This document shows positions 230-51,009 of a stretch of DNA of 55,584 nucleotides, in pieces; position 1 is the first letter of the stretch; each line of letters begins with the position of its first letter. The notes under the pieces were generated by a model. It searched no databases. It had not been told where the DNA came from and was given only the letters and a program-made list of their open reading frames with translations. Source of the stretch: a virus (lineage: Duplodnaviria > Caudoviricetes); the IMG/VR virus record IMGVR_UViG_3300012985_000002, positions 1 to 55,584 of that record; one strand, written 5' to 3'. The position numbers were made by a program, and so were the translations under genes.

Positions 230-635
230 GTAACCAAGCGTAACTACGGGAAGTGGGAGCGTAACCGGGCGCGTAACCGGCCCGGTTACCATGCGAGACA
301 TGGCAAGGTGGGCAACGTAACCAGCGTAACCACCCCCGGCAAACCCCCCTAGGTTACTATGATCTTGTACGTTATTATCTAACTTCCCTTCAAGGGATGA
401 GAAGAAGTAAATGTAGGTTACAGAGGCCAGTTCCAAAAAACCGGTTACGCCGGTTACGTTGGGCAGGTTCCCATGCGAGACATGGGAAGCAGGCCGGTTA
501 CGCGACTAGTTACGCGAACCCTTGCCGTAGTTACGTGTGGTTACGCAGTTCGGGCGTAACCATGACGTTGGTTGTGAGCAAGGGTAAAGAGCGGCCATGC
601 AGCTAACCAGGAAGCAGAGACATGCGGTAACCGCA
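230..635. repeat. Array of 17 GTAAC/GTTAC motifs, candidate origin or protein-binding array
   Basis: GTAAC at 230, 240, 261, 273, 317, 326, 556, 627. GTTAC at 285, 353, 417, 444, 453, 497, 509, 530, 540. Confidence 0.75.
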
Positions 636-790
636 AGTGACTATACGTACACCCTGTGCGCCTAGGTGACTTGTAGTGCAACAGCAAGTTACCTACGTCG
701 CCGTCCCACCGGGACTTAAGACGTGACATGCTATATGTTAAAGCTAGTTGTTACTAGCTAGTCATGTTCATAATACATAAATTGTTTTGA

Positions 791-915
791 GCTCAGCACT
801 ATAGACTTACTCGTCTACTGGTGGGTGACCACGTCTGGTTCCCAGACGCAAGCGCCAGTAGCTAGAATAAGTCAGTTGATAGGTCAGGTCTGTCGTCATA
901 GACTAAGTGCTGAGC
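791..915. ncRNA. Candidate structured non-coding element
   Basis: Nested stems 791-800/906-915 (perfect 10 bp), 804-809/868-873, 815-821/855-861 and 832-838/842-848. Confidence 0.35.
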
Positions 916-922
916 CATTACA

Positions 923-980
923 TTAAAAAGAAAAAGTGAACATGACTAGGAACCCGTTCCCCTACGGGTCCCTAGCCATG
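923..980 (-). terminator. Intrinsic terminator after the 987-1226 gene
   Basis: Minus-strand stem CATGGCTAGGGACCCGT/ACGGGTTCCTAGTCATG with G-U pairs, followed by TTCACTTTTTCTTTTT. Confidence 0.8.
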
Positions 981-986
981 TGGTTG

Positions 987-1226
987 TCAGGCCGACTGAG
1001 CCAGGTTGTTCTGGATGAACACCTGGACCGCAGCCTTGTTGGCATCGCGGTAGGCCTCGATGGTTGCAGCAACCTGAGGCAGGTTGGCAGCAGCGTTGAG
1101 CACGTGAACTCCAGACATGTCCTGGAAGTTCTCGATGTCGACCGCGAGGGTACGAGTGGTGTTGACGTAGAAGCGCTCGAGCTGTTCGAGCGGGTTACGT
1201 CGGGCAGGACGCTTGTCCTTAGCCAT
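987..1226 (-). CDS. Hypothetical protein, 79 aa (MAKDKRPARRNPLEQ...)
   Basis: RBS AAGGAG upstream of the ATG at 1226, phage-like codon use, own terminator. Confidence 0.75.
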   Translation of the reverse strand: MAKDKRPARRNPLEQLERFYVNTTRTLAVDIENFQDMSGVHVLNAAANLPQVAATIEAYRDANKAAVQVFIQNNLAQSA

Positions 1227-1732
1227 GATGGTCTCCTTAGATGGTAGCATAGACTATACTAGATAGCATAGCAAAAGATATACAATAACAGCAGAAGCAT
1301 AAAGCCACAGCAAAGCAATTAGATCATGTAACATGTACATGTAAGATGGAACAGGTAGCCACAAAAGTAGCAGAGCACGAGCACCACCAGGTTTCAGTAG
1401 TAGTAGCACAAGTAGTAGCACGAGAGGGACGACGAGTTCAAGAAAGTGTCAAAAGAGATACTTATATGTATTAATATAGGGGGGTATATGATGTCTTTAT
1501 TGTGTTATTAGTATATCTTCCATCTGCTCACAAAAGTTTTCCCGAAAATCCTAGTCATGTCACCCAGACTCTTACCTCCTCTGAAACGCGCAAGGTAACG
1601 CGTGTGGTAGCAGAAAGGCACAGACGAGGGCGGTAGCGCGATTCGTAGCACCTGTGGGCTACTGGGAGGCCCTGCTCAGTGCCCGTGATCGAGAGCGGCG
1701 GCCCCGTCTTGCCCCCGCGACCGTCCGAGTCG

Positions 1733-1741
1733 TGTTACAAT
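1733..1741 (+). promoter_or_regulatory. Extended -10 promoter (TGtTACAAT) for the giant gene
   Basis: TGn-TACAAT about 50 nt upstream of RBS AAGGAG and GTG at 1794. Confidence 0.5.
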
Positions 1742-1793
1742 GTCCTAGGCCAACCGTTTCCGGTTCGCTGACAAAGACTTAGAAGGAGTCGCA

Positions 1794-4700
1794 GTGGCTT
1801 GGACTGATGAGGTCGCCGACAAGGACCCCTTCAACTACGCGCCGAAGGGTCTCAAGCAGACTCGCGAGCTCGCGTGGGCTGATGGTGCTGCGAGCCTGGA
1901 CCCTGGACTGCGGGTCGGCTGGCAGACGGGTGGACGTGTCGGCGGTACGGAGAACGCGTTCAACGACGAGTTCTTCACTCGGATGTACGACCAGTACGAC
2001 GAGGAACAGCAGAAGATCCAGGACAACCCGGACTATGTCTCCGACCTGTTCCTCCGCCCTGACTTCACCGGCATCGTCGGCTGGAACCAGACGTTCGCGA
2101 AAGACGGCTACTTCAAGGGTAACGCCCAGCTCAGCGAGGGCGACCGCCAGTTCAAGGTCGGCGATGTCTACGACAACGGTGTCTTCCAGGGCAACGTGTA
2201 CGATCGGGACTCCGGCTTCACGCGGGAAGAGGCGAATGCCTACGTCGCCCCGCACATCTTCGGCAAGGACGCCGCTGACAAGTATCGCGAGGCCGACGGC
2301 GACCAGGACAAGCTCTATGAGATGATCCAGGAGCAGGGTGCCAAGGAAGGTAAGCTGGTCGAGGCTTACGTCACCCGCGCGCCCTACCAGCAGTCCGTCA
2401 ACAAGCTGCTGAGCGACTGGGAAGGTGGAGCCTGGGACGAGTTCCTGATCCCGGTCGCGGGCTTCGCTGGCGGTGCGGCTGCTGGTGCTGCGTTCGGCTG
2501 GCCGGGTGCGATCGTCGGTGGCATCGCGGGTGCTGTCGGCAGTCTCGCGAACGTCGATGAGGCCCGCACCATGGCGGCTCAGGCGTTCGTCAGCACCGGC
2601 CTCATGGCTGAGGAAGGCACCGACGCTCAGATCGCGCACCTGACGGCCAAGGCAGGTGAGTTCGGCGTCAGCCGCATGAACGTCCTGACCAACCTGACCG
2701 CTGGTGCCGTCGATGTCTTCTCCGGCAACTGGGGCGACGACCTCTCTGAGATCCGCGAGGCGCAGGCTGCTGGTAACTGGGGCGCGGACGTCGCCCTCGG
2801 GGTCACCGGGTTCGTGGACGGCATGCTCATGTCGTCCAACAAGGCCGCTGTTGCTGCCTACACTGCCTCGATGGGCGGCTCTGCCCTCGGCAACGCCTAC
2901 AACAAGGCCACGAACGACGGGGAGTGGGATGAAGTCACAGGCTCCTTCCACAAGTACGAGAGCATGGAGCAGCGACTTGCTGCAGCTGGTGCTTCCGCGA
3001 TCGACATCAGCCAGATGCTCATGCCCAGTCTGCTCCGATACTCCGCTAGCCGGAACGTCGGTGGGACGAAGAACAGTGCACTGGACGACCTGGCCCCTCG
3101 CAACCCCGACGCCGTCCGCACCACCACCACGATGGACCGCACCTTCGACGTCAAGATGGGAGCAGACGGTGTCGTGCGCGCAGAGCGAGAGTCTCTCGCT
3201 CAGACTATCACCGCCTGGATGGTCCCCAGCACCGCTATCAATCGTCTGGCGGTACGTGGATCGGCCTATGCAGACGTGCTCCGACGGGGTGGCAGCTCTG
3301 TCACCGCGGACGATCTGTATCAGGCGGCGGTGCGCATGGAACGCGCCACAGTACCCTGGAAGCTTGCCCTCGTCAACGGCTTCGGCGAGGCCACTGAAGA
3401 AGTCCTCCAGACGTACCTGAACGGTGCGGCAACTGGTTGGGCTGCTCAGCCGCAGGAGCTCCTGAACGCTGCCGTCGCAGGCTTCGCGATGGGCGCGGGT
3501 ATGAGTGTCGGCTCCAGGGTCGGCACGTTCTCCGCCGACGAGCGCGCCAGGTACCGCGCCAACACCCTCCTGCTGAACGACGGACAGCAGCCCTTCAGCC
3601 GCACGGAGTGGAAAGCTGTCGACCCCGCCACGAAGCGCATGCTGTCGACCGCCAACCAGACCACGGAGCGTCGCCTCCGTCGTCAGCGCGAAGACTACAT
3701 GGACGACACGACGCAGCAGCTCGTGAGCTCTGTCGTCGCGGCGTATCAGAAGGAAGACGCCCTCAAGACGATCCTCAAGAAGCAGCAGCTCACTCCCGGC
3801 GAGTGGGAAGACGCTCTCGAGGACATGGCCGACATCCTGCCGTTCAACGACGTGCGGATGCCCAGCTACATGATCTTCCACTCCGCGAAGACCACGCTGG
3901 CCAAGCTGAACAACCGCCTGAGCGCTCTGAGCCAGCAGCTCATCGAAGAGGACACCGACCAGCAGCAGGACCAGAACGTGCAGGGCGTCCACGACACCCT
4001 CGCCGGGCTGATGACCGAGCTCAACGGCCTCTACGAAGAGTACGTGCGTACCAACGGCACGGACCCGCTCGCGCGCATCAACCGTCTCCTGCAGGACTAC
4101 TGGGACGGCACTGCTCAGGTCGACGCACCCAGCATCCTGCAGCAGCAGGCGGTGGAGCTCATCTTCTCCCGCCTCCCGAACGACAACCCCGGCTCGTTCC
4201 AGATGCTTCTGCCTCAGATCGACTTCGAGATGGAGGCCAACAACGCTCACGGGATGAGCAAGGTCTCCCAGTCGTTCGAGAAGCTGCTCAGCCACGACAA
4301 CGACGGCGACAAGCTCAAGCACATGGCGCGGTATGTCCCGAACCGGGGCGCTCGCGAGCAGCTCCGCCTGGGCATGAACCACTGGGCACCCGTCGAGGGC
4401 GTCGAGGAAGCGGGTACCCGTGGCGGCGGCTTCCTGAACGTCGCCAAGCGTGGCTACGAGGACGCGATCCTCATGCTGCAGCAGTTCACGCTGGCCGGGT
4501 TCGACGTCGACGCGCAGAAGGAAGTGCGCAACACGTACGACGCCCTGGTCAAGGACCTCAAGCAGTCTCTGCCCGGCGTGCGCTCCAGCACGTTCACGAA
4601 CTTCCGCAACATGCTGGAGAAGAACCCGGACGGCGCGAAGCAGGAGTTCTACCGCGCCCTCGCGCTCGACTACTCCAAGCTCATCAGCCTCGGTCGCTCG

Positions 4701-7700
4701 GGTACCAAGCCCGAGTACGTCAAGAACAACTCGCTCAAGCCTGAGCAGATCGTCAAGCCCGGTACCTCCATCGGCATCTGGATCGAAGACAAGATCCAGC
4801 AGCACCTGGAGGTCTGGCGCGACGCCCACGCGACCCGTGAGACGGCAGAGTTCGTCAAGAGCGGCACGAAGGGTGCACAGCCCCAGGGCCTGCAGGCGGG
4901 TACCCCCAGCACGGTAGAGACGGCAGCTGCAACCCTCGGTCAGACCAACGAGCAGCGCTCTGGTGGCTCCGACCCGTTCCGCTCGATGGGTGGCCTGCAG
5001 TACGGCCCCATCAACTCGGTCGCTCGGGACGCTGACGGTCGGCACAACCCCTCCGAGCTCCGCCAGGCGATCATCGAGTGGTACACCAACCTCACCCGCC
5101 TCCGCCCGTACAGCGCTCTCACCACGCTGCGTCAGGGCGGCTCGCCCGTCGTTCGTGAGGCTCGGGCTGACCTGGAGAACCTGGCGTACCAGAAGTACCC
5201 CGACCTGATGAAGAACCCGGCGACGAGGGATGAGACCCTCATTCGCCTGGCCAACTCCCCGTTCTGGAACGTGGACGAGAGCCAGGTCGACACGTTCGAC
5301 TTCCAGGTCCACGACGCCTCTGCCACGATCGGCTCGGTGCTCATCAAGGCTGCTGCTGCTCGTCAGGCGGCGCTGGCTCCCGTCGCGTTCGGTGAGCTCG
5401 ACGCCAACGAGGCATACGCCACTGTTACTCCCGCGCGCGCGATGCAGCTGCTCAACGGTGCAGTCACTCCGAGCACGGTGCTCCCGAAGGAGCAGGCAGA
5501 CCAGCTCGGCGCGTTCTCGTCCCTCGACTCGCTCATCCGTGACTACACGATGATCCAGAGCCGTCAGCAGCGCTCTGACTGGCGCGCTCGGGCAGAGCTC
5601 CACAGCGCGTACACCGAGCTCAACGCCGTGGGCGAGCCCTCGCTCTACCGTCTGCTGGTGGACACCATCCGTGAGGCGAGCGACAAGGAACTCAGCCACG
5701 CTGCTGACGGCACGGCACAGGGTCGTCTCGCCCGTGAGGACAAGACGTTCCACGAGAAGCACGTGCTGCCGATCTTCCAGAACCTCGCGCACATGATGGA
5801 CACGCTCGGGCTCAGGGGCCTGAGCCGCCAGGGGATCATCAACACCCTGGAGAATAACAGCCGTGTTCTCCAGAACGTGCTGAGCATGTTCCCCGCCGAG
5901 ATGCAGCTCGCGATCCTGAAGGCCCCGAACCCGAAGGCCAGTCCTCGCGACTTCGCCATTCCCGGCTGGTTCTTCGACATGCTGCTCGAAGAGAACGCCG
6001 AGAAGGCCGCGTTCATCTACTGGGACGCCATGCTCCAGATGGACCTGGACATGTACGGCAAGGATGCACACCCCGGCAACGCGTGGGTGCAGCTGTACTC
6101 GACCCTCGACGCCGCTGGCAAGCAGACCCTGGACGACATGCGAGCCACGGCGACCTCGGTTCAGCAGTTCGTGGACGAGGTCAACCGCGAGATCACGTTC
6201 AACCAGGCCCCGCTCCTGGCCTGGCGCACGGACACCACGCTCTACTCGCCCGACTCCACCAAGAGTGGCTGGCAGTGGAGCGCGCCGTCGGCAGAGCGTC
6301 GTCAGGCGATCCGTGACGCGGCCAAGTACTTCAAGGAGAACGCTCAGGCGCTCCCGTCCGAGGTCGAACTCCAGGCCCGTAACCTCGGCTACGCGACCGA
6401 CCTGCTGAACGCTCTGCAGAAGCCCGACACGTACAAGAGCGCTCAGCTCAGTGACGCGATCAAGGCTCTGGACAACCGTCTGAAGCAGAGTGGGGTCCTT
6501 CGTCAGCCGACGATGGGTCCTCGTGGCCGTCGTGCCTTCGTGGAGCGCTCCTTCCGTGGTATCGACCCCGGCTCCGCCTCCAAGGGTGTGGCCAGCCCTG
6601 GCATCGCTCAGTACGGCGACACCGACGTTCGTCGTGACCAGACTGCTTTCGGCTCCCAGCTCGACCAGACGTTCAGCGCTCTGCTCGCCGGTGACGCCAA
6701 GAGCATCTCGTTCAACCCCCAGGCTCTGATGCAGGAACTTCGCCTGCAGACCGAGTCCGGTGCGATCATCGACTGGACTCCGCTGACCACCGAGCAGTTC
6801 CTCCAGCTGTTCATCATGGAGGACGGCGCGTACCAGAACCTGCTCTTCGCGCTGATCAACCCGTCGGTGTACGAAGAGACTGGCCCCGGTAAGGCGGTGC
6901 AGCAGTATCTCTTCCCGCAGGACCTCGAGAAGATCGTCGGCACGACGTTCTATAAGGACCTGATCAACGGTACGGGTGGTCGGAACAAGCACGAGACCAA
7001 CGAGCTCTTCCTGAGCTACGTCGACTCGCTCACCAACGGCAACCTCGTCACTCGCATGCTCGCCGACTCGGCGATCGCGCGGACCACGACAATCGAGACC
7101 CTCACCAACTCCGCCTACGAGAGCATCGTGGCTGACGTGGCGGAGGCGATTCGCTCGCTCATGGGTCTGGCCCCTGGTCAGGGTGACGCGCTCCGTGGCC
7201 TGCTGGAGACGCAGGCACTCAAGGACTACGAGCCGATCCCCGGTCTGGGACAGCTCGGCGCTCTTCCTGCTCCCGCGCGCGAGGCGCAGATCGACAACAT
7301 GATCCAGCTCTATCAGGGCGCGCTCGACGTCGCCGTGAAGAACTGGGAGGCCAACAAGACGATCGACAACGCCGACCTCGTGTACGAGGCTTCGGAGAAG
7401 CTTGGCATCGCCCAGGGTCTCAAGAACACTCGCAAGTACGGCGAGCTTCAGATGAACGCTCTCAAGATCGACTGGGACAGCCCGACCGCCCAGCGCGTGA
7501 CCAAGACGATGATCACGCAGTACATCGAGACGTTCGGCCCGTCCCTCGCCACCACCATGACGGGTGACGACGCCAAGACCCTGTCCAAGTGGAACCTGGC
7601 TCAGACCGACCACATGGACATCTTCAAGTCGTTCAGCACGGACGAAGCCGCAGACCGCAAGGTGTGGGACGAGCTCAGCAAGATCGTCGCCCTGCACCGC

Positions 7701-10700
7701 ACGCTGACGAAGAGCGGCTACCTGGCGAGTGACTCGATCGCGTCGCCGACCACGAAGGAGTGGGGTCAGTTCGACCCGACGTTCGTCTACCTGACCAAGG
7801 ACATGGTCAGCGACGAGTTTCTGAGCGTGCTCAGCAACCTCCGCAAGGCCGTCCCCGACGCCATGCCGCCTCGCAAGAGCGTGGACGCGGTCGTCACTGA
7901 CCTGAACAAGACGGTGCTCCGCCCGAAGAACTTCGGCAAGTGGGTCCCCGACCTGGTCATGCAGCACTCCGGCTCCAGCCGGTATCTGGACAGCTCGGGC
8001 TCGCCCCAGCAGATCGCGATCGGTGGCGAGCTCCTGAAGAGCATGATCGCCGCCACAATCAGCGCTCGTCGTACGAACACGCACCCCACGCCGGATATGG
8101 CGCGCGCGTACAAGATCGACGCAGAGGAACTGATCGCTAGCGAGACCGACTTCTTCGGTCGTGGTCTGCAGGGCGAGCCTTGGGCAATGCTCGAAGGCGC
8201 GTCAGTTGTTGCCCCTCGCTACAACAGCGAGACGGGCAAGACCGAGGGTGCAGGTCCTGTGCTCATCGCTCGGGACACAGCAGGCAACGTCATCAAGGAG
8301 ATCCCGCTGACGCTCGCCACCAGCCGTATCACGAACGGTGGCAAGGACCTGGAGGGTGTGCCCGGCACGATCGCTCAGATCACGCACCAGTCGATGATCG
8401 AGGCTGTCAAGACGGCCATGAGCACCTTCAAGGGCTCTGCCGTGGCAGGCTCCTACTCGTCTATCTCCGTCGAGTTCCAGATGTTCAACCCCGTCATGAA
8501 GCCTGCGATGGACCCCTCGAAGCCTGCCGATAAGCAGGTCAACTGGGCGAACAACATTCACTTCGACGGTACGCTGGGTCAGACGGACACCAGCACGAGC
8601 ATCTACGCCGCCCTGCTGGCAGGTGTGGACGGTCTCGTGCAGCGTCTGGAGCGTGCTGCTCTCGACGCGATCAAGGGCTCGCTGGCGATCTTCACGACGG
8701 CTCACCCGCGTGGCTTCGACGGCAAGGACCCGAACCAGCTGCTCGACCTGCTGTACGACATCACTGCTGACGTCATGCGTACCCCGATGGGGGAGGACTA
8801 CCTGTTCCCGAACAACGCCTACAAGGGCGTGTTCCGTCTGGTCCGTGACCGTCTGCTGGTCACTGGTCAGGACGCGGAGGGCAACAAGGTCACGCTCTCG
8901 TCCGAGCAGGCTCTGACGACCGACCTCTCGCAGTACACCGACCTCAAGGTGGTCGAGCTCAGCACCCGCTCGCTGGAGACTCTGCGTGGTGCAACGGGTG
9001 GCTCCGGTCACCCGCGCAACCTGCAGAAGGCTCCGCGAATCGGTGGTGAGGGCGAGCCGTGGAAGGGGTACTACGAGCCGTTCCAGCTGGAGCGTATGCC
9101 TCAGCTCGGCACTCAGCTCACCGACCTCAACCAGATCGCAGAGGCCCTGCGCACGTCGGGCCTGCTGGACCGTGACCGCGTGCAGACGTTCCAGTACGGC
9201 ACGCACACGGCTGACGAGCGTACCCAGCAGCACCGCAAGTTCGAAGAGTTCATCGAAGAGCGGTCGGCAATCGCCAAGGCTCGTCGCGAGCGTGGTACTC
9301 AGAAGCGCTACCGCTCCGTCAACACCGGTGTCGCGATCGCGTGGCGCAACCTGCTTCGTCAGGACCAGCGTGTGCGTCGTGCCACGACCGACGCCCTGCA
9401 GGAGGACCTCGGCGGTGTCAAGCCGAATCGCGATCTGACGATCCAGGACGCTCACCGCTCGCTGAGCAACATCCTCTCGTACGCGAACGGCAACGAGGCA
9501 CGCCTGTTCCTCGTGGACCCGAGCGATCTGCAGGCGAACGGTGACGAGGGTCGCCTCACGTCCGTCCGCAAGGACCAGGGCGAGCGCTGGAGCAACGTCC
9601 GCCCGGTCAACGACATCGTGATCCTACAGCTGGACGGCTACGAAGAGGCTCCCGGTACCCCTGAGTGGAACCGTCTCGTCGTGGACGAGCTCGCCGCCAT
9701 GAAAGAGCGCGGTCTGACCATCGGCCTCACGTCGGCCAAGGACCCGAACGCTGCCAGTATGGCCCGCGACCTGCTCCTGCAGAGCCAGGGTCCGTACGAG
9801 TCGGTGAACGATGACCTGTTCATCTTCGCCCCTGTGACTCGTGTGGACGAGGGTCGTACCCTCGCTGCCCGTCGTGCTACCCTGACGGAAGCCAAGGTGC
9901 AGAGCCTGCGCGGCTACGTGCTCGCGGCCTACTCCGAGGACGGCTTCTACGCCACTGACGCTGAGGGCGTGCAGATCGACCCGCTCAGCAAGTGGCTGGG
10001 CTACACCCAGGGCTACGCCTCGGACATCGTGCCGACCACCGGCATGAACCAGTACCACTCGCCGGGCACGCCTCAGGCTGGCCAGCGCATCGCACAGGTC
10101 TACGACTACCTGCTCAAGAACAACGGCGCGCTGTACCTCATGGAGCAGCAGGCCATGGGCGGTGGCGGTGACACGACCCTGGAAGAGTTCCAGACTCTGC
10201 TCCAGCGGGCGTACGACAACCTGGACCGTGCAACCGGTCGTCCCAAGGTGAACACCGAGTTCCGCCCTGGCGACCTCGTGGCCACGATCAACGAGATCGG
10301 GAGCCTCACGTTCACGCGCTGGGGCTACGACTCCACCGACGTGGACTTCGAGTCGCAGGACCGTAACGGCCTCGACGGCATCTCGATCGAGGGTATTCCG
10401 TCCACAAAGTCGATCCGTCTCGTGGCAGGCAAGAAGCTGCCCCATGACAAGGCATCGCTCCGTGGTGGTACGATCGAGCAGGTCTTCATCGACCCGGTCT
10501 TCGGTCTCCGCATCCTGTTCAAGAACGACATCAACCTCTACGGTGCGAAGATGGTCGATGAGCACGGAACGAAGACTCGCTCCGTGATCCTGGCCGAGAA
10601 CAAGCTCCCGTCGGTGCCGATGTTCAATGACACGCGGCCCGCCATGTACGCGGACTACCCGACGACCATCAAGAAGGGTGTCAATGCGCAAGGTACGGTA

Positions 10701-13700
10701 CTCAACGCCCGCGAAGGCATCTTCGTCTACGGCATGGACTTCCACCGCACTCTGGCCAACGCCCTCTGGTACGGCACGCCTGGCACGCCGTACTACGATG
10801 TGGACACTTGGGCTGCTCTGGACCCTGATGAGCGTGCAGGTATCTCTGCCCGCGTGGTGAACGCTCTCGAGCTCGCTCGTCTCAAGGAGACCGAGCGCAT
10901 CTCCGACAACGAGGACCTGGCGTTCTCGGTGTACAAGAGCAACCAGCTCTCCGAGACGGCTCGCGCCCTCATCGAAGAGCAGGGCGGTGCTACCCTCGGC
11001 TCGGCTCAGCTCCGCGCCAAGTACGCTGCTGCTGGTGTGAACGTCGATGAACTCCAGGTCGAGCAGCTGTACCTGTCTGCTGCCCTGCAGTACCTCAAGG
11101 GTAACGGCACGTCGGTGTATCACGTGCTCGGCTCCCCTGGTTTCGAGCAGGATGCGAACATCGAGGACCGCGAGTCGCTCAAGATGCCCGCGATTCTGAC
11201 GCAGTTCATCGACATGAACCTGCCCCTCCGCAAGTACGTGATTGGAGACGTCAATGCCCGGATGTCGTCAAACGAATACGATCCCCTCGACGGCTCCCTC
11301 GTCCAGGGCTGGCTGGTCCAGTCGGATTGGCGTGTACTCCTGCGGCGTGCCAACGGAACTAGCAATACCGTGGTCCTTCGATCGGTACGCGCTGAGGCCA
11401 CAGGTGAGGACCACAGCGAACGGTCTGAACTCAACAGTGATCTGGCTACCCACGATGTTGCCTCGAACCAGCAGCAGATGTTCGCCCGCGAGACCATCGG
11501 ACTCGATCTTGGCTACGCTCGACGCGATCCTAAGCTTTCGCGACTCCTTGAGGCAACGGCCTATTCCGAAGAGCGCGTCCGAGACCTTACGTTCGGGCGT
11601 GCCGCAGAGCGCCTGGCAGGTCGAAGCTCTGAAGAGCAGTCTTATCGGGATGAGAACAGCAGCAAGGCCCGCGGCTACCTGACCCCGATCACTCGTGAGC
11701 TCGGCACGGTCGCCGACGAGAAGGTCGTCGACCGCATGTACGACGAGGCTTACAAGCACCTGGGCCTCGTCAAGAGCGGTACCGCCAAGCGCATGGTCGA
11801 CTCGATGATCCGCATGTACTACCGTGCAGTCAGCGACCCGAACAACCCCGAGGTCGACAAGCGGAACGCGGCTCAGATGAAGGAGGCGCTGGCCTCGATC
11901 AACGCCTCGCTCGCTGCCTACCGCTGGCCGATGGACTCGTCTGCCATGCCTCTCATGCACGGTGACGTAGTGGACTACATCGCCCGCAACGGTACCTGGA
12001 CGCCAGAGAACGTCACGGTGACGGGTGACAAGCGTGCCTTCATGCTGCAGAACGCCCTGGACAACACCATGGCTTCGGCGCAGGAGGTCCCGGTCGAGGC
12101 GCAGCGTGAGATCGACGCTCTGTTCGCTACCTACGAGAAGTACTTCTCGAAGGGCTTCTGGCCCGCGTCGGCCTACCCGGCTGTCATCGAGCGTCTCGCG
12201 TCGGCAGGAGACGGTACGTTCGTGTCGTCCATCGACCCGTACCGCCAGATGCAGCTGGAGGGTGGCGACCCCTACGCTGAGTACGACGGCATCGCACCCG
12301 ACTCTGCCTACGTCGGTACGACCGGCGCTGGCACGAAGCTGGAATCCAGCCGTCGAGCATGGCGTACCCGCGAGCGCACCAAGGATCGTGGCGGCGACCA
12401 GCCCACGAACATGCTGACTCGCGCCAACCAGGGTGCTCAGTACCGCGACAAGGTCAACTATGTCGCTGGGTTCTGGCGCAACGCCCACGCTCTGCGTACC
12501 ATCACTCCTCAGCTCAACCCGTGGCTGTGGATCTGGAACCCGATCGACTTCCAGTGGCGGCGGATGCCTGCAGCAATGCAGCAGGCTGTCTCTGGTCAGG
12601 GTGTCAACTGGGCTGGCCAGCGTATCCGTGACGGTGTCCAGTTCCTCGCGGACAAGACCGAGTCCTCGCTCCTGACAATGGACCCGGAATCGCGCAAGGC
12701 TGCTGCTCTGCAGGCCTGGACGGACGCGTTCGGCGTCACCCAGCCGTGGATCACGCCCGAGGCGAACGCGTTCCTCAAGGAGACGGTCGACACGATGATG
12801 GCGAACCAGGACTTCCGGTCCGCCCTTGCCGAAGAGTCGCGCCACCACCCTGATGACGAGCTCCTGACTCGCGGTGACCGTCAGCGTCAGAAGGCAGTGG
12901 ACTGGGCGAGCCGCTCGCAGGACCTCCTGCGTGGTCTCGCGAGCCGTGCACAGGTCGAGGCTTACCTCGTCGCCCTCATGGAGAACGAGCGGATCAACAA
13001 CCCGAACGTCACTGCCATGCAGATTCTCGAGCGCCTGCACCGCAACCCTCTCGCGTTCAAGCAGATGGGTCCGTTCGACTCCCACACCAAGGGCGTCCGC
13101 ACGGTGCAGAACTTCAAGGGCGCGAAGCTGACTGCGATCGGTGCTCTGGTCGACCGCATCCTCATCCCGATGTCTGAGAGCCCCAACGCGATCCTGTCGG
13201 GACCGGCGAACACCCTGCTGCTCATGGCCAAGTTCCGCAACTTCGCCTTCTCGTCTGCAGTGCAGATGATGGGCGGGCAGGCTGTCGACGCTGCTGCGAC
13301 GATTCTCATGCAGGCTGTGGCCTTCCGCAAGCAGGCTTATCGTCGTGCGCGTGGCCTGGAGCCTGAGACGCCCAACGACTACATCTCTCGTACGATGGAG
13401 TCGGCAGACATGGCCGACCTGTTCATCAGGTCGGGTATGTCCCTCACCGGTCTCTTCTTCGCGGGCCTGGCGTTCAACGCCGCAGGTCTTACGGGTGAGA
13501 CCGAAGAAGAACGGCGGAAGCGTAGGATCGAGCTCCTGCAGGGTCTCGGTACGCTGTACGACCCCCGCGACATCGCGAACTCGTTCCTGAACGAGAACGC
13601 CGTCTGGCTGGAGGGTCTTGCGAACGGGCCTCTTGCACCGCTCGCCGCGTGGTTCCGAGTGGAGACCGGTGAGGGTCAGCCCATGCGTTCCCCTGCTCAG

Positions 13701-15248
13701 ATGCACTGGACGCTGAACTTCTTCGTGTCGCCCATCATGGGTGTCGCAGAGTTCATGCAGACCGGTGACTTCTCTGACCTCGCGGACGGCTTCTTCGGCG
13801 CGATCGGCAGCATGCCCCTCATCAACACCAACATGTTCTGGGATGCCTGGACCACGACGGAGAAGATGTACGCTGCTGCTTCCGAAGAAGCCCCCGTGGA
13901 CGTGCAGCAGGGCTCGCAGGTGACCGGTCAGCTCATCAAGGTCGCCGCCACGCTGGAGAAGATGCTGCTCGAGTTCGCGTTCGTGAACGAGCTCGCTGCT
14001 GCCTCTGACGAGTACATGCGCGACCCGTGGACAATGCCTGCAGTCAACGAGTCCGGTCAGCTCGACCGTACTGCTGACGGCCAGCCTCGTCAGACGGACG
14101 TCACCGACGAGCAGCGGGACGAAGAGGGCTTCGTCTACGAGGACGAGATTCAGCGTCCGTACAACGAGGGCCTGTGGCGGTACTACACCGGCTCGCAGCA
14201 GACGCTGGCGTTCCTGTCCTCGCTCGTGACTGGCTTCACGTCGAACAACACGGCTCAGTCGTTCTGGCGTCAGGACCAGGTGGTCGACGGTACCACGATC
14301 AAGCGTGAGGGTCTGGACATGGAGACGGCTGAGGCCGTGATCATGTCGGTCTACAACGAAGATACGGGCCAAGAGGTTCTCACCACAGAGGGCATGATCC
14401 GCCTCTTCGACTCGCTGCACGCCGGTACTGCCAAGGCTACCGACCCCGCTCTGCAGAACATCTTCATCACTGGCGACCAGCGAGCCGAGCTCAGCGACAT
14501 CATCCAGAAGAAGATCTACGTCGAGGGTGTGGAGACGCTCGGGCTGTCCGAAGACGACGCCATGCAGCGCATGTACGACATCTGGAACGGCCCGAAGAAC
14601 AACCCGTACGTCACGCCTCTGTGGCAGGTCGTGTGGAGCCAGGGCGAATTCCAGAACGAGAACGGTCTGCCGTTCAACGAGACGGTGCGCTACAACCAGC
14701 TCAACACCACTTGGGCTGTCGGCCCTGACGGTAAGATGTGGGCAACAGGTGTGGCTCGTCACAGCGTTCCCGGTCTGGCAGGAGGCGTGCTCCCGCTCAC
14801 GGGCTACCAGGGTTCGGGTGCAGGTGGCCTGCAGGGTAACCTGGGCGTGGACGAGGTTCTCAACTCGACCGACGACGTCATGGGCGTCAACACCGGCTAC
14901 CGCATGCTGACGCGTGTCAACAACAACCTGGAGATTCCCAACGAGGAAGACATCATCAAGGCGATCGAGGACTCGACCAAGCGCGTTGTCGATGAGATCA
15001 AGAACCTCGACTCCGACCTGTACAACAACCTCGACCGCTACCGTGGAGGCTACCGCTACGGTAGCGGTGGTGGAGGCTACGGCGGTGGCGGTGGATCGAA
15101 CCCGTACATGCCGTTCCTCAACGGTATGCGGACGCCGTACGCGGACAACATTCCGAACCTCTACATCAACAACATCAACCCCCGCCGCGCGAGCGTACGT
15201 CGTGAGCGGTTCTCCAGCGAGCGAGGAAGGCTGAACCAGCAGCAATGA
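1794..15248 (+). CDS. Giant 4484-aa protein, putative virion-packaged two-barrel RNA polymerase / ejection protein
   Basis: RBS AAGGAG and strong GC3 bias. Beta'-like IFSRLP...HDNDGD (nt 4161-4310). Beta-like YDNLD..G..GD..AGKKLP..GTIEQVFI..GAKMVDEHGTK (nt 10212-10574). Gly/Ala-rich hydrophobic segments near both ends. The CDS is certain; the function is inferred. Confidence 0.7.
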   Translation: MAWTDEVADKDPFNYAPKGLKQTRELAWADGAASLDPGLRVGWQTGGRVGGTENAFNDEFFTRMYDQYDEEQQKIQDNPDYVSDLFLRPDFTGIVGWNQTFAKDGYFKGNAQLSEGDRQFKVGDVYDNGVFQGNVYDRDSGFTREEANAYVAPHIFGKDAADKYREADGDQDKLYEMIQEQGAKEGKLVEAYVTRAPYQQSVNKLLSDWEGGAWDEFLIPVAGFAGGAAAGAAFGWPGAIVGGIAGAVGSLANVDEARTMAAQAFVSTGLMAEEGTDAQIAHLTAKAGEFGVSRMNVLTNLTAGAVDVFSGNWGDDLSEIREAQAAGNWGADVALGVTGFVDGMLMSSNKAAVAAYTASMGGSALGNAYNKATNDGEWDEVTGSFHKYESMEQRLAAAGASAIDISQMLMPSLLRYSASRNVGGTKNSALDDLAPRNPDAVRTTTTMDRTFDVKMGADGVVRAERESLAQTITAWMVPSTAINRLAVRGSAYADVLRRGGSSVTADDLYQAAVRMERATVPWKLALVNGFGEATEEVLQTYLNGAATGWAAQPQELLNAAVAGFAMGAGMSVGSRVGTFSADERARYRANTLLLNDGQQPFSRTEWKAVDPATKRMLSTANQTTERRLRRQREDYMDDTTQQLVSSVVAAYQKEDALKTILKKQQLTPGEWEDALEDMADILPFNDVRMPSYMIFHSAKTTLAKLNNRLSALSQQLIEEDTDQQQDQNVQGVHDTLAGLMTELNGLYEEYVRTNGTDPLARINRLLQDYWDGTAQVDAPSILQQQAVELIFSRLPNDNPGSFQMLLPQIDFEMEANNAHGMSKVSQSFEKLLSHDNDGDKLKHMARYVPNRGAREQLRLGMNHWAPVEGVEEAGTRGGGFLNVAKRGYEDAILMLQQFTLAGFDVDAQKEVRNTYDALVKDLKQSLPGVRSSTFTNFRNMLEKNPDGAKQEFYRALALDYSKLISLGRSGTKPEYVKNNSLKPEQIVKPGTSIGIWIEDKIQQHLEVWRDAHATRETAEFVKSGTKGAQPQGLQAGTPSTVETAAATLGQTNEQRSGGSDPFRSMGGLQYGPINSVARDADGRHNPSELRQAIIEWYTNLTRLRPYSALTTLRQGGSPVVREARADLENLAYQKYPDLMKNPATRDETLIRLANSPFWNVDESQVDTFDFQVHDASATIGSVLIKAAAARQAALAPVAFGELDANEAYATVTPARAMQLLNGAVTPSTVLPKEQADQLGAFSSLDSLIRDYTMIQSRQQRSDWRARAELHSAYTELNAVGEPSLYRLLVDTIREASDKELSHAADGTAQGRLAREDKTFHEKHVLPIFQNLAHMMDTLGLRGLSRQGIINTLENNSRVLQNVLSMFPAEMQLAILKAPNPKASPRDFAIPGWFFDMLLEENAEKAAFIYWDAMLQMDLDMYGKDAHPGNAWVQLYSTLDAAGKQTLDDMRATATSVQQFVDEVNREITFNQAPLLAWRTDTTLYSPDSTKSGWQWSAPSAERRQAIRDAAKYFKENAQALPSEVELQARNLGYATDLLNALQKPDTYKSAQLSDAIKALDNRLKQSGVLRQPTMGPRGRRAFVERSFRGIDPGSASKGVASPGIAQYGDTDVRRDQTAFGSQLDQTFSALLAGDAKSISFNPQALMQELRLQTESGAIIDWTPLTTEQFLQLFIMEDGAYQNLLFALINPSVYEETGPGKAVQQYLFPQDLEKIVGTTFYKDLINGTGGRNKHETNELFLSYVDSLTNGNLVTRMLADSAIARTTTIETLTNSAYESIVADVAEAIRSLMGLAPGQGDALRGLLETQALKDYEPIPGLGQLGALPAPAREAQIDNMIQLYQGALDVAVKNWEANKTIDNADLVYEASEKLGIAQGLKNTRKYGELQMNALKIDWDSPTAQRVTKTMITQYIETFGPSLATTMTGDDAKTLSKWNLAQTDHMDIFKSFSTDEAADRKVWDELSKIVALHRTLTKSGYLASDSIASPTTKEWGQFDPTFVYLTKDMVSDEFLSVLSNLRKAVPDAMPPRKSVDAVVTDLNKTVLRPKNFGKWVPDLVMQHSGSSRYLDSSGSPQQIAIGGELLKSMIAATISARRTNTHPTPDMARAYKIDAEELIASETDFFGRGLQGEPWAMLEGASVVAPRYNSETGKTEGAGPVLIARDTAGNVIKEIPLTLATSRITNGGKDLEGVPGTIAQITHQSMIEAVKTAMSTFKGSAVAGSYSSISVEFQMFNPVMKPAMDPSKPADKQVNWANNIHFDGTLGQTDTSTSIYAALLAGVDGLVQRLERAALDAIKGSLAIFTTAHPRGFDGKDPNQLLDLLYDITADVMRTPMGEDYLFPNNAYKGVFRLVRDRLLVTGQDAEGNKVTLSSEQALTTDLSQYTDLKVVELSTRSLETLRGATGGSGHPRNLQKAPRIGGEGEPWKGYYEPFQLERMPQLGTQLTDLNQIAEALRTSGLLDRDRVQTFQYGTHTADERTQQHRKFEEFIEERSAIAKARRERGTQKRYRSVNTGVAIAWRNLLRQDQRVRRATTDALQEDLGGVKPNRDLTIQDAHRSLSNILSYANGNEARLFLVDPSDLQANGDEGRLTSVRKDQGERWSNVRPVNDIVILQLDGYEEAPGTPEWNRLVVDELAAMKERGLTIGLTSAKDPNAASMARDLLLQSQGPYESVNDDLFIFAPVTRVDEGRTLAARRATLTEAKVQSLRGYVLAAYSEDGFYATDAEGVQIDPLSKWLGYTQGYASDIVPTTGMNQYHSPGTPQAGQRIAQVYDYLLKNNGALYLMEQQAMGGGGDTTLEEFQTLLQRAYDNLDRATGRPKVNTEFRPGDLVATINEIGSLTFTRWGYDSTDVDFESQDRNGLDGISIEGIPSTKSIRLVAGKKLPHDKASLRGGTIEQVFIDPVFGLRILFKNDINLYGAKMVDEHGTKTRSVILAENKLPSVPMFNDTRPAMYADYPTTIKKGVNAQGTVLNAREGIFVYGMDFHRTLANALWYGTPGTPYYDVDTWAALDPDERAGISARVVNALELARLKETERISDNEDLAFSVYKSNQLSETARALIEEQGGATLGSAQLRAKYAAAGVNVDELQVEQLYLSAALQYLKGNGTSVYHVLGSPGFEQDANIEDRESLKMPAILTQFIDMNLPLRKYVIGDVNARMSSNEYDPLDGSLVQGWLVQSDWRVLLRRANGTSNTVVLRSVRAEATGEDHSERSELNSDLATHDVASNQQQMFARETIGLDLGYARRDPKLSRLLEATAYSEERVRDLTFGRAAERLAGRSSEEQSYRDENSSKARGYLTPITRELGTVADEKVVDRMYDEAYKHLGLVKSGTAKRMVDSMIRMYYRAVSDPNNPEVDKRNAAQMKEALASINASLAAYRWPMDSSAMPLMHGDVVDYIARNGTWTPENVTVTGDKRAFMLQNALDNTMASAQEVPVEAQREIDALFATYEKYFSKGFWPASAYPAVIERLASAGDGTFVSSIDPYRQMQLEGGDPYAEYDGIAPDSAYVGTTGAGTKLESSRRAWRTRERTKDRGGDQPTNMLTRANQGAQYRDKVNYVAGFWRNAHALRTITPQLNPWLWIWNPIDFQWRRMPAAMQQAVSGQGVNWAGQRIRDGVQFLADKTESSLLTMDPESRKAAALQAWTDAFGVTQPWITPEANAFLKETVDTMMANQDFRSALAEESRHHPDDELLTRGDRQRQKAVDWASRSQDLLRGLASRAQVEAYLVALMENERINNPNVTAMQILERLHRNPLAFKQMGPFDSHTKGVRTVQNFKGAKLTAIGALVDRILIPMSESPNAILSGPANTLLLMAKFRNFAFSSAVQMMGGQAVDAAATILMQAVAFRKQAYRRARGLEPETPNDYISRTMESADMADLFIRSGMSLTGLFFAGLAFNAAGLTGETEEERRKRRIELLQGLGTLYDPRDIANSFLNENAVWLEGLANGPLAPLAAWFRVETGEGQPMRSPAQMHWTLNFFVSPIMGVAEFMQTGDFSDLADGFFGAIGSMPLINTNMFWDAWTTTEKMYAAASEEAPVDVQQGSQVTGQLIKVAATLEKMLLEFAFVNELAAASDEYMRDPWTMPAVNESGQLDRTADGQPRQTDVTDEQRDEEGFVYEDEIQRPYNEGLWRYYTGSQQTLAFLSSLVTGFTSNNTAQSFWRQDQVVDGTTIKREGLDMETAEAVIMSVYNEDTGQEVLTTEGMIRLFDSLHAGTAKATDPALQNIFITGDQRAELSDIIQKKIYVEGVETLGLSEDDAMQRMYDIWNGPKNNPYVTPLWQVVWSQGEFQNENGLPFNETVRYNQLNTTWAVGPDGKMWATGVARHSVPGLAGGVLPLTGYQGSGAGGLQGNLGVDEVLNSTDDVMGVNTGYRMLTRVNNNLEIPNEEDIIKAIEDSTKRVVDEIKNLDSDLYNNLDRYRGGYRYGSGGGGYGGGGGSNPYMPFLNGMRTPYADNIPNLYINNINPRRASVRRERFSSERGRLNQQQ
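11254..11682 (+). CDS. Putative overprinted +1-frame gene inside the giant gene (142 aa)
   Basis: GGAG 6 nt before the ATG at 11254. The host frame shows an island of rare A/T-ending codons over this ORF. Confidence 0.4.
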   Translation: MPGCRQTNTIPSTAPSSRAGWSSRIGVYSCGVPTELAIPWSFDRYALRPQVRTTANGLNSTVIWLPTMLPRTSSRCSPARPSDSILATLDAILSFRDSLRQRPIPKSASETLRSGVPQSAWQVEALKSSLIGMRTAARPAAT

Positions 15249-17281
15249 AGAACGAATACGAAACCGTCACGGACTTCGACGACTGGTACACCACGTCGCA
15301 GACCAACACCCAGGGCGCGCGTATCGCCAAGGGCTTCGGTGGCTGTGCCCGGAAGAAGGTGAATCAGTTCCGTCGCTGGAGGACGGAGATGAACACTCGT
15401 ACCAAGGACTACTGGAAGTACGAGAAGCAGGCCGCGGCCGAAGTCGTCAAGGACATCGACGGGATGCCCAACATCTCGTCTGGCGAGTCCGCAGGCTTCA
15501 TCCGCCGTATCTCGCGCAACGTCGTGCAGCACACCCCGAACGTGTTCATCTCGAACCAGTTCGATGACGACTCGCCCGAGGGCATCCTGGCACGCTACGT
15601 CCTCAAGACCAAGATCATCGGTGACGATGAGTACAGCAACGACATGCAGCAGAACCTGGTTACCTCTGCACGTCGCGGGCTGACCATCGGCTACGACGCG
15701 GTCGTCCCGCTGCTGGAGCAGGACGCCCAGGGTCGGTGGAAGACGCAGTACGACACGGTACACTACCGTGACGTGTTCCCGGAGCCAGGAGCCAAGGACA
15801 TCCGTCGGGCCAAGGAGACGTACGTCCGGCGCTGGCTGACCAAGGGCATGATCCACTCCATCATCCGTGACCAGACTCCGGGTTGGGACATCACGGCTCT
15901 CAAGACGATCCTCACGTACGCGCCGACGAAGAGCAAGGAGTCGAACGACCACGAGTCGCGCAAGCACTCTTGGAACCCGGACGCCTACGAGGTCATCACC
16001 TGGTACAACAGCTACGGTGACCCGTTCCTGACGTGGGAAGAGCGGACCTCGCTGCTTGTCCGCATCGAGCAGAACACCGACCCTCTGAAGCGCTCGCCCG
16101 TGCTGTTCTTCATCCCGGAGCGCGACGACCAGCAGCCCTTCGGCAAGTCCATCCTCTCGCTGACCTACGGTCGGCAGGAGTTCCAGGACCTGTTCATGAA
16201 CGGCGCGATGAAGATGTTCTACCGGAACATCAACCCGCCGATCATCGGCTACGGCACGGTCAACGCCATTCCGAACTTCTCGCCTGGCAAGTACACCGAG
16301 GTCAGCAACCCGAACGCCAAGATCGAAGCCCTGGAAATCAACACCCAGGCGCTCATGATGTTCGGCACCATCAGCCAGCAGAACCAGGGTGCGATGGTGC
16401 AGCTCATCGGTGCTGCCGACCAGCAAATGGCTATGCAGTCCTCCGGTGGTCAGATGTCTCAGACGCCTCAGGGTGTCGAGGCGCAGCAGCAGATGGTCGA
16501 CATCACGACCAACAACTACCAGAAGGCGATGGAGAACTTCTTCTCCTACTACTGCTCGCTCGCGCTCACACTGTACTTCCAGGAGCTCAAGGGCTCTGGA
16601 GCGATCACCCCTCCCGCCGACGTGCGTCAGCAGCTCATCGATGCCGGTGTGCCGCCCGAGGCGTTCCTGCACGAAGAGCAGAAGGTCCCGATCTACGACG
16701 ACGAGGGTATGCTCATCGACGTGCAGACCATCCCTGCCGACGACACGGGTTGGCCGGACGGTGCGTTCAAGCCGGACTGGGACAAGCTCGCCGTGGTGTA
16801 CTATGTGCAGTGCGTGCCCGGCTCTCTGGTCGAGCTCGAGGACGAGAAGCAGCTGCGCATCCTGCAGCAGGTTCTCGTTCCCATCAGCCAGGCGATGCCT
16901 GCTATGGCTGCTGCTGGTGACCAGGACGGTCTCGCCAAGACCAGCCAGGCCATTCAGTACATCGTGCAGAAGACCATCGAGCTCTCTGGCTCGGCCCACT
17001 CCTCGGAGCTCACCAAGATCTTCACTGGTGAGACCCAGCAGGGCCAGCAGACAGCAGCACGCCTTGACGCTCTGGAGAGGGCACTCAGCGAGGACGTGTT
17101 CGATGAGAACGAAGCACAGTTTTCCGTGCTCGACGCTCTCCGGGAGAGGATGGCTGGCATCGAGGCAGCGATCGTGGAGGCGGCTCAGGCCCGCCAGGCG
17201 GTCGCGGGGGGCCAAAGCGAAGGATTCGCCGCCCCTGCCCCGGTTTCCGCCCTCCCCGCTCCCGCAACGCTTGCCTCGTAA
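15245..17281 (+). CDS. Portal protein (podovirus head-tail connector)
   Basis: 678 aa. The segment PFGKSILSLTYGRQEFQDLFMNGAMKMFYRNINPPII is typical of P22/T7-like portals. Lies just before the capsid gene; ATGA overlap. Confidence 0.75.
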   Translation: MKNEYETVTDFDDWYTTSQTNTQGARIAKGFGGCARKKVNQFRRWRTEMNTRTKDYWKYEKQAAAEVVKDIDGMPNISSGESAGFIRRISRNVVQHTPNVFISNQFDDDSPEGILARYVLKTKIIGDDEYSNDMQQNLVTSARRGLTIGYDAVVPLLEQDAQGRWKTQYDTVHYRDVFPEPGAKDIRRAKETYVRRWLTKGMIHSIIRDQTPGWDITALKTILTYAPTKSKESNDHESRKHSWNPDAYEVITWYNSYGDPFLTWEERTSLLVRIEQNTDPLKRSPVLFFIPERDDQQPFGKSILSLTYGRQEFQDLFMNGAMKMFYRNINPPIIGYGTVNAIPNFSPGKYTEVSNPNAKIEALEINTQALMMFGTISQQNQGAMVQLIGAADQQMAMQSSGGQMSQTPQGVEAQQQMVDITTNNYQKAMENFFSYYCSLALTLYFQELKGSGAITPPADVRQQLIDAGVPPEAFLHEEQKVPIYDDEGMLIDVQTIPADDTGWPDGAFKPDWDKLAVVYYVQCVPGSLVELEDEKQLRILQQVLVPISQAMPAMAAAGDQDGLAKTSQAIQYIVQKTIELSGSAHSSELTKIFTGETQQGQQTAARLDALERALSEDVFDENEAQFSVLDALRERMAGIEAAIVEAAQARQAVAGGQSEGFAAPAPVSALPAPATLAS

Positions 17282-17338
17282 GGTAAGATACCAGTAACAG
17301 GACGCACCTGTGTCCTCTATCCCGAAAGGAATCCAGGA

Positions 17339-19009: not shown

Positions 19010-19013
19010 GGTA

Positions 19014-19047
19014 GAATGGGTGGGTAGTTTCGGCTACCCACCCGTTC
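19014..19047 (+). terminator. Hairpin / terminator after the capsid gene
   Basis: GAATGGGTGGGTAGT-TTCG-GCTACCCACCCGTTC. The U-tract is weak. Confidence 0.6.
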
Positions 19048-19071
19048 CAACCTCACGACAAGGAGACCAAG

Positions 19072-19224
19072 ATGGATCCTCTCGAAGCACTTCGCCAGAT
19101 CGCACAGCAGCTGAACGACCTCTCGGGCGGCATGCTGGACATCCTCAACCAGCTCGGAGGCGCACAGGGCGGCGGCGCACCCTCCGAGGAAGGTGCGGTT
19201 CCTGCTCCCCCTTCCGGCGAGTAA
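19072..19224 (+). CDS. Small hypothetical protein, 50 aa (MDPLEALRQIAQQLNDLSGG...)
   Basis: RBS AAGGAG and good codon use. Too short for the supplied ORF track. Confidence 0.7.
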   Translation: MDPLEALRQIAQQLNDLSGGMLDILNQLGGAQGGGAPSEEGAVPAPPSGE

Positions 19225-19245
19225 TCGCTCGTAACGCAGAAGCAC

Positions 19246-19286
19246 TGGAGCGGGGGCGGCAATCCTTCCTTGCCGTCCCCGCTCCA
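19246..19286 (+). terminator. 17-bp stem-loop, possible terminator
   Basis: TGGAGCGGGGGCGGCAA-TCCTTCC-TTGCCGTCCCCGCTCCA. Confidence 0.55.
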
Positions 19287-19305
19287 ATCATGAAAGGACA
19301 GGTCC

Positions 19306-20166: not shown

Positions 20167-20172
20167 GTCGTC

Positions 20173-23882: not shown

Positions 23883-23905
23883 CCAAAGAGAAGGAAGGAA
23901 AGGCA

Positions 23906-24181
23906 ATGGCAGAAGCAAAGACCAAGGAGCAGGTCCTCGCAGAGCTCAGCGACAACGATCGCGCGCAGCTGCACGGTGCGCTCAAGACGTGGCGCAAGGA
24001 GGGAGTGGAGAACCCGCTCATCCCTCTCGGCGACGTCGACGGAGACGGGATCATCGAGGCGTGGGCGCTCGACCTCGAGGGTGAGCTCACCCTCGTCGCC
24101 ACGGGCCTCGACGAGACCGTGTTCGAGAGCACCGGCGAGGGCATCGAGCTCGGCGGCATCCCCCAGGAAGGAGCAGAGTAA
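23906..24181 (+). CDS. Acidic hypothetical protein, 91 aa
   Basis: RBS GGAAAGG, stop coupled to the endolysin start (TAATG), GDVDGDG motif. Confidence 0.75.
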   Translation: MAEAKTKEQVLAELSDNDRAQLHGALKTWRKEGVENPLIPLGDVDGDGIIEAWALDLEGELTLVATGLDETVFESTGEGIELGGIPQEGAE

Positions 24182-25017: not shown

Positions 25018-25023
25018 CCTCAC

Positions 25024-49635: not shown

Positions 49636-49833
49636 CTAGACCCACACCCAGACGAACGGATGTCCGCTGAGTGTGGCGATGCCGTAGATGAACAGCATGA
49701 CGACTGCGAAGATGATCCAGATCAGGAGGAACAGCATGATCCCCTGGAACGGGTCACCGCCCAGCGGGTCGAACAGACCCGCCAGGCCAGCGATGATGCT
49801 GACGAGCAGCACTGCGAGAACGATCCACAGCAT
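49636..49833 (-). CDS. Small membrane protein (2 TM)
   Basis: TGATG coupling, two hydrophobic segments. Confidence 0.7.
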   Translation of the reverse strand: MLWIVLAVLLVSIIAGLAGLFDPLGGDPFQGIMLFLLIWIIFAVVMLFIYGIATLSGHPFVWVWV

Positions 49834-51008: not shown

Positions 51009-51009
51009 C

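Follow-up and report, generated by a model that had tools for sequence, protein, structure and literature searches.

A giant cysteine-free protein encoded next to the portal gene of a podophage is probably a virion-packaged two-barrel RNA polymerase

What is encoded by the single gene of more than 13 kb that directly precedes the portal gene in certain short-tailed phages of Actinobacteria? Such a gene, which takes up a quarter of these genomes, was described as the most striking feature of cluster EK phages and of phage Burro, which are podoviruses, with its roles unclear (Jacobs-Sera et al. 2020, PMC7302621). The same question is raised by the IMG/VR virus record IMGVR_UViG_3300012985_000002, a complete phage record of 55,584 bp (hereafter the window), in which a first-pass annotation, made from the sequence alone, had proposed that a protein of 4,484 amino acids (aa) carries both catalytic halves of a two-barrel RNA polymerase (RNAP) and is injected from the virion. 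Two genes are at issue:

1794-15248, + strand: giant gene, GTG start, 4,484 codons without internal stop
15245-17281, + strand: portal gene, product 64% identical to the annotated portal protein of phage Akoni, sharing 4 nucleotides (nt) with the end of the giant gene

The overlap and the identity of the neighbour bear out the coupling to the portal gene noted at first pass. The giant protein is, in our assessment, probably a virion-packaged and injected two-barrel RNAP, with the barrels in reversed order and set within a multifunctional chain. Two regions, here called A and B, carry the polymerase-like sequences:

3801-4523, + strand: region A, candidate beta'-type double-psi beta-barrel (DPBB-A) with an inserted helical hairpin, aa 670-910
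4158-4316, + strand: core of the beta'-like block, R-x-P...G-S...D-x-D-G-D, aa 789-841
4296-4310, + strand: D835-N-D837-G-D839, putative Mg-binding catalytic triad, invariant, aligned to beta' D460/D462/D464
9891-10913, + strand: region B, beta/Rpb2-like flap (wall) and hybrid-binding (DPBB-B) domain, aa 2700-3040
10548-10574, + strand: K2919...K2927, putative equivalent of the beta lysine pair K1065/K1073, 98%/99% conserved

The motif strings on which the proposal was built all lie at the residues given for them in the 4,484-aa open frame. The R-x-P block starts at aa 790 and SHDNDGD occupies aa 833-839; far downstream, the YDNLD block starts at aa 2807 and is followed by LVAGKKLP (aa 2876-2883), GAKMVDEHGTK (aa 2917-2927) and the KLPSVP block (aa 2932-2949). 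In the E. coli K-12 record, R425 of beta' lies in NRAPTLH (from 424) and D460/462/464 in NADFDGD (from 458), and K1065 and K1073 of beta belong to GDKMAGRHGNKG (from 1063). The spacings claimed are correct on this record, with 42 residues from Arg to Asp in the giant protein (R793-D835) against 35 in E. coli beta' (R425-D460), and an identical distance of eight between the lysines of K2919/K2927 and of K1065/K1073. Such bare motifs are common within the giant protein, D.D.D occurring twice and K-x7-K five times, so that conservation, rather than the presence of a motif, is the real test against chance.

By sequence comparison, the giant protein belongs to the giant-gene family of Microbacterium and Arthrobacter podophages (EK and Burro-like). 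Homologues of 4,434-4,494 codons lie directly before the portal gene in Akoni, ArMaWen, Burro, Arete and MissAmericana, the order of the two genes being kept in all five annotated relatives. Whole-length protein identity amounts to 46% over 4,353 aligned positions with Akoni gp31 and to 24-29% with the products of ArMaWen, Burro, Arete and MissAmericana, which are collinear throughout; the window protein thus fits the pattern that defines the family, in which collinear homologues of about 4,400-4,900 aa are encoded right before the portal gene. The EK1/EK2 products (Akoni gp31, ArMaWen gp31 and that of TinyTimothy), Burro gp27, Arete gp27 and gp30 of Arthrobacter phage MissAmericana share its family, length and pre-portal position, whereas at the DNA level the window gene represents a distinct lineage. 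DNA matches to known phages are short pieces only, in ten records that are all Microbacterium phages, and coverage of the giant gene stays below 80% in every phage record.

Protein-level queries with region A found 58 phage records (57 Microbacterium and 1 Arthrobacter) and with region B 47, all less than 60% identical, and pattern scans added 10 IMG/VR and 5 metagenome loci, with no relatives in a set that held a single genome for each bacterial species. A profile run against 1.84 billion representatives returned 165 clusters (50% identity) at E<=1e-3, mostly metagenomic, and the 150 clusters listed of these included 121 full-length proteins of 4,370-4,898 aa. These cluster representatives, mutually less than 50% identical, were aligned with the window protein to give 122 rows, whose median identity to the window protein in regions A and B is about 20%. 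R793, P795, D835, D837, G838 and D839 are conserved in 122/122 rows, followed by G860 (99%) and S801 (97%) in region A and by G2826 (99%), K2927 (99%), G2844 (98%), K2919 (98%), K2961 (98%) and R2842 (96%) in region B; only 145 of the 4,484 positions are at least 90% conserved. The invariance of the D-x-D-G-D loop and of both lysines among orthologues, which the first-pass annotation had named as a check, therefore amounts to 100% for the aspartates, 98% for K2919 and 99% for K2927.

It had been claimed that aa 790-839 parallel the catalytic loop of bacterial beta'. Profile-profile alignment with hhalign of family aa 680-900 against a beta' profile of 81 segments (E. coli and 80 loci, nearly all proteobacterial) confirmed this residue for residue, placing aa 789-841 on beta' 421-466 at P 2.4e-5 (probability 75%), with R793 on R425, P795 on P427 and D835/D837/D839 on D460/462/464, against P 0.43 and 0.36 in cross-controls. 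In a scan of 53 windows from E. coli RpoC, E. coli RpoB and phi14:2 gp66, RpoC 421-466 was again the top match (P 3.4e-5), and the best gp66 match, spanning its DFDID site at 1361, had P 0.017. The core hidden Markov model (HMM) scored 11.9 bits in hmmsearch at RpoC 445-474 compared with no more than 4.3 in 3,000 shuffled sequences. N763, R793, P795, D835, D837, G838, D839 and G860 are invariant in the 40-row alignment of region A. On these comparisons the A block is similar to beta' at the level of homology, and region A is a candidate beta'-type double-psi barrel.

HMMER-level searches gave no link between the giant family and RNAPs: the 40-row profile of region A had no match at E<=10 in either the complete E. 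coli chromosome or the genome of phi14:2, and a Pfam scan of every member of the region A and region B alignments found no RNAP family. Profiles of regions A (15 sequences) and B (10) returned coiled-coil noise from the PDB sequences and, over the DxDGD stretch, AR9 beta' at E 1.3-1.4, and ESM Atlas feature searches with both cores gave TPR/DUF rows at <=0.87 or nothing usable.

Region B could be approached through its predicted structure. AlphaFold2 (AF2) modelling of aa 2700-3040 with a 35-row alignment reached a mean predicted local distance difference test score (pLDDT) of 81.4 and a predicted template modelling score (pTM) of 0.70. All 49 of the 49 PDB matches listed by Foldseek are chains of multisubunit RNAPs (bacterial, plastid, Pol I and Pol II), nine of them at E<=1e-3 with a best value of 4.9e-4; from chain lengths and letters, convention and residue ranges, we infer that these are second-largest subunits. 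In BFVD, the first three matches are members of the giant family, all named 'uncharacterized', and the next 26 listed comprise 23 entries from large DNA viruses that bear the name DNA-directed RNA polymerase (best E 3.8e-5) and three unnamed ones; neither PolD nor QDE-1 is among the structural matches listed. The structural register fits, since E. coli 1057 lies 8 residues before K1065 and model residue 213 lies 7 before K2919. In the predicted model, region B thus folds like the second-largest RNAP subunit and supplies the other barrel, a hybrid-binding domain of beta/Rpb2 type in which the lysines are conserved, so that the AlphaFold and Foldseek check named at first pass came out as anticipated for this half. 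The accompanying claim, that aa 2807 to about 2965 are collinear with beta/Rpb2, holds in part: the proposed alignments are the two best found by hhalign, are collinear and agree with the fold, but neither top local alignment against beta is significant alone (P 0.13 for the G-D block; P 0.07 for aa 2880-2990, where GAK...GTK...LP falls on GDKMAGRHGNKG...EDMP and K2919/K2927 on the lysine pair).

The beta'-like region comes first in the chain (aa 835) and the beta-like region second (aa 2919), D835 and K2919 being 2,084 residues apart. We propose that this giant internal virion protein would hold the catalytic core of a two-barrel, cellular-type RNAP, in which a beta'-type barrel would contribute the Mg-binding D835-x-D837-G-D839 loop and R793-x-P795, and a beta/Rpb2-type flap and hybrid-binding domain about 2,080 residues downstream would contribute K2919/K2927. 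The cysteine-free chain would be packaged beside the portal, possibly after proteolytic processing, and would be ejected through the short tail along with the DNA; the two barrels would then join into an active centre that would transcribe the first phage genes without the host RNAP and may help pull the genome in. Pairing of the barrels, polymerase activity, injection and the role in early transcription are the parts of this scheme that we infer. For injection, the argument put forward at first pass comes down to synteny with the portal gene and to a virion band in a relative: Burro virions contain a protein of about 250 kDa that was attributed to processed gp27 (PMC7302621), and Burro gp27 is 24% identical to the window protein.

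Several results qualify this proposal. AF2 modelling of aa 620-1000 (15 sequences) gave a pLDDT of 63.7 overall and less than 50 across the motif, and Foldseek with this low-confidence model found no match below E 0.5; the structural check of region A therefore failed to yield the barrel, while the profile-profile link to beta' stands. Helices were predicted at aa 691-753 (model residues 72-134), a hairpin just upstream of the motif with pLDDT of about 67-88. Also, no bridge helix or trigger loop was detected when aa 401-3550 were tiled by hhalign against full-length beta' and beta, which recovered only the DPBB-A block, sequence methods being weak at such a distance. Support for an RNAP comes from the catalytic motifs, with their alignment to beta', and from the fold of region B. 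Complex prediction of region A (241 aa, 40 rows) with region B (300 aa, 35 rows) and Mg scored 0.01 against a mark of 0.32, which gives no answer, neither for nor against.

A more far-reaching version is doubtful: that the giant chain is a complete ejectosome-plus-transcription machine, a cysteine-free polyprotein which threads through the short tail of a Gram-positive podophage, inserts into the envelope by its hydrophobic segments, refolds into an RNAP of cellular size and type with beta'-then-beta order and pulls the genome in by its transcription. Such a chain would have arisen independently by fusion, in circularly permuted order, of both large RNAP subunits, and no larger single-chain RNAP would be known. 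The 2,084 residues between D835 and K2919 are close to the approximately 2,010 that a head-to-tail fusion of beta' and beta would give, a match that is only numerology so far. A full-size beta'-beta fusion was set aside as having no sequence support, as the tiling found no further beta'- or beta-like stretch.

Other properties of the giant chain concern its passage out of the capsid:

2439-2498, + strand: hydrophobic Gly/Ala-rich segment, aa 216-235, Kyte-Doolittle 19-residue mean peak 1.57, family mean 1.04
13419-13475, + strand: second hydrophobic segment, aa 3876-3894, hydropathy peak 1.49, mean above 1.0 in 73% of family rows
13491-15245, + strand: best-conserved stretch of the chain, with an invariant Arg-rich tail at its end, aa 3900-4484

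The protein has no cysteine, compared with about 28 expected from the 0.62% in 23 other open reading frames (ORFs) of the window; 99 of the 122 family rows likewise have none, and 117 have at most two. The segment at aa 216-235 is a possible membrane-inserting element, and aa 3900-4484 may be a packaging, portal-docking or ejection module, 64 of the 145 positions with at least 90% conservation falling in aa 3901-4484. A cysteine-free chain with hydrophobic segments and a conserved C-terminus fits a protein that exits the capsid in an unfolded state and also acts in ejection or at the membrane; in the proposed scheme, ejection, membrane passage or packaging would be the task of the hydrophobic segments and the C-terminal ~600 residues. 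Family-invariant blocks also occur within aa 1-600 (1794-3600), namely G123-D124, N253/D255, P478-S479, E532/E535/E536/Q539 and G563/G567/G569; they had no family match and may belong to a further enzymatic or ejection domain.

Both hydrophobic segments and aa 3900-4484 lie outside the RNAP-like blocks. This placement, together with the label of tape measure protein on some relatives' records and the bridge helix and trigger loop left undetected by the tiling, would suit an ejection or scaffolding ('tape-measure-like') virion protein whose RNAP-derived domains have ceased to polymerise and now serve, by exaptation, a structural or nucleic-acid-binding purpose. We regard this explanation as quite unlikely, because inactive derivatives normally lose their catalytic residues, whereas here the three aspartates, the arginine and both lysines are 98-100% kept at about 20% identity, and because podophages have no long tail to measure. 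Very unlikely is a two-barrel enzyme that does polymerise but in a different role, for instance as a primase, replication initiator, QDE-1-like RNA-dependent RNA polymerase (RdRP) or PolD-like DNA polymerase. The region B neighbours listed are all beta/Rpb2 chains of DNA-dependent RNAPs, flap/wall included, with no PolD or QDE-1 among them, the phage encodes its own family A DNA polymerase, and a place in the virion module beside the portal suits a packaged enzyme; on the other side stand the breadth of the two-barrel superfamily, which takes in RdRPs and PolD (PMC10770324), and the failure to recognise a separate, dedicated primase domain among the 20 large window ORFs scanned, one of which carries DUF5906. 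That the similarity is convergent or due to chance, D-x-D-G-D being a different metal site and region B a generic beta-rich fold with no RNAP kinship, is highly improbable, as two independent methods applied to two regions indicate partner subunits of one enzyme at the catalytic residues of each, and the residues concerned are all near-invariant.

The reading of the giant protein as a packaged two-barrel RNAP can be set against the polymerases already known. Compared with cellular RNAP, the R-x-P...D-x-D-G-D block aligns to beta' 421-466 and region B resembles the beta flap/wall and hybrid-binding domain with its two lysines, but the giant protein is a single chain with the beta'-like part first, no other region of beta' or beta is detectable by sequence and no alpha or omega partner is evident. 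Cellular beta' carries Zn-binding elements, which cannot be present here since the giant protein lacks cysteines. By the available scores, the catalytic blocks look closer to cellular beta'/beta than to gp66.

The first-pass annotation had drawn its parallel with gp66 of phi14:2, a large, virion-packaged, single-chain two-barrel RNAP of a crAss-like podophage that acts in early transcription (10.1101/2020.03.07.982082; PDB 6VR4). The record of gp66 (2,180 aa) describes it as a catalytic subunit of RNAP that was detected by virion proteomics. The likeness in lifestyle can be retained, while membership in the same family cannot: the barrel order is A then B in the giant protein, opposite to the B then A implied for gp66 (PMC10770324), gp66 is not among the region B structural neighbours listed, and similarity of the giant family to gp66, which has DFDID at 1361, reaches P 0.017 at the motif only. 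A gp66-type single-chain virion RNAP was rejected on the reversed order and this weak similarity. Another parallel is gp96 of Thermus phage P23-45, a giant virion protein of 5,002 aa with several functions, which travels through the tail and has a two-barrel RNAP embedded in it (PMC10770324). P23-45, however, is a siphovirus, and the N-terminal RNAP of gp96, which belongs to the QDE-1/gp66 clade, forms a compact unit (active fragment 327-1124) on a genuine tape measure.

N4 gp50 has a T7-like single-subunit fold that is unrelated to the two-barrel type. This encapsidated polymerase of the Schitoviridae, of about 3,500 aa, is ejected and transcribes early genes (PMC13434306). An RNAP of this kind was rejected for the giant protein, which has no T7-type Pfam domain or PDB sequence match, and the products of the >13-kb genes were reported to have no similarity to, and no shared motifs with, the N4 virion RNAP (PMC7302621). 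The giant protein probably works in the manner of gp66, gp96 and N4 gp50, though it falls outside all three of their families. If so, an RNAP core would explain the giant 13-kb gene, a large family (at least 165 clusters at 50% identity) would join the few known virion-packaged RNAPs, and podophages that infect Gram-positive Actinobacteria would be added to the phages that inject their own transcriptase. The reversed order of the barrels and their wide separation would also bear on the evolutionary assembly of two-barrel polymerases.

The family has so far carried no such assignment. Whole-protein searches gave only ApoLp-III in Pfam at E<=1 (E 0.12), nothing relevant in PHROGs and nothing below E 3 among PDB sequences. 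The statement in the first-pass annotation that similar EK/EM proteins had been left without a function proved accurate: the available passages of the Akoni announcement (PMC8281081) and of a 2026 EK2 announcement (PMC13460095) give the giant gene no function, and source names, present on 14 of the 41 members read in ten family clusters, are all 'hypothetical', 'uncharacterized' or 'tape measure'. The window protein is a further, divergent family member, and the RNAP reading is absent from the passages available of PMC7302621 and PMC8281081; full-text literature searches, with subscription journals and supplements outside their reach, found no paper assigning an RNAP to the giant-gene family. 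'Tape measure protein' is used, despite the short tails, for MissAmericana gp30 (12093-25397), for the RefSeq entries of Arete and Araxxi and for RicoCaldo in UniRef. We rejected identity as a tail tape measure, as the relatives are podoviruses and the giant protein has no match to a tape measure family in Pfam or PHROGs.

In one metagenome contig, L020, the giant gene appears as two overlapping ORFs in different frames (422-4429 and 4426-10773), the former holding the D-F-D-G-D motif and the latter the G-D-K...G-M-K motif; the gene may be genuinely split, or a frameshift error may account for it. Several short library proteins (P0021, P0107 and P0049) have Arg/Pro/Ser-rich tails that resemble frameshift artefacts.

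The remaining gene content of the window agrees, by sequence, with the Microbacterium/Arthrobacter podophage group. The + strand arm carries terminase, tail proteins and an endolysin-like protein, and the - strand arm family A DNA polymerase, helicases, a PD-(D/E)XK nuclease and a DUF932 protein; no other RNAP or sigma factor was recognised among the 20 large window ORFs scanned, and a crude repeat search gave no candidate promoter family. Some 1.8 kb of non-coding sequence precede the giant gene. The early/replication arm includes:

39432-40871, - strand: DUF5906 protein
49833-51083, - strand: DUF932 protein

The DUF5906 protein is possibly the NTPase part of a primase-helicase. Neither the portal homologue (15245-17281) nor the presumed capsid gene (17339-19009) matches a Pfam or PHROGs family at E<=1e-3, which indicates that the head module of this phage group is very divergent. 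A 278-aa protein (24181-25017) matches endolysin PHROGs with its C-terminal part, and a PHROG of unknown function together with a stretch of a tape-measure family with its N-terminal part, which suggests a lysin-type domain common to tail proteins. An exact direct repeat of 123 nt occurs at both record ends (1-123 and 55462-55584). It could reflect a terminal repeat, or else an overlap left when a circular or permuted genome was assembled. The G+C content of the first 3 kb is 0.56, compared with about 0.63.

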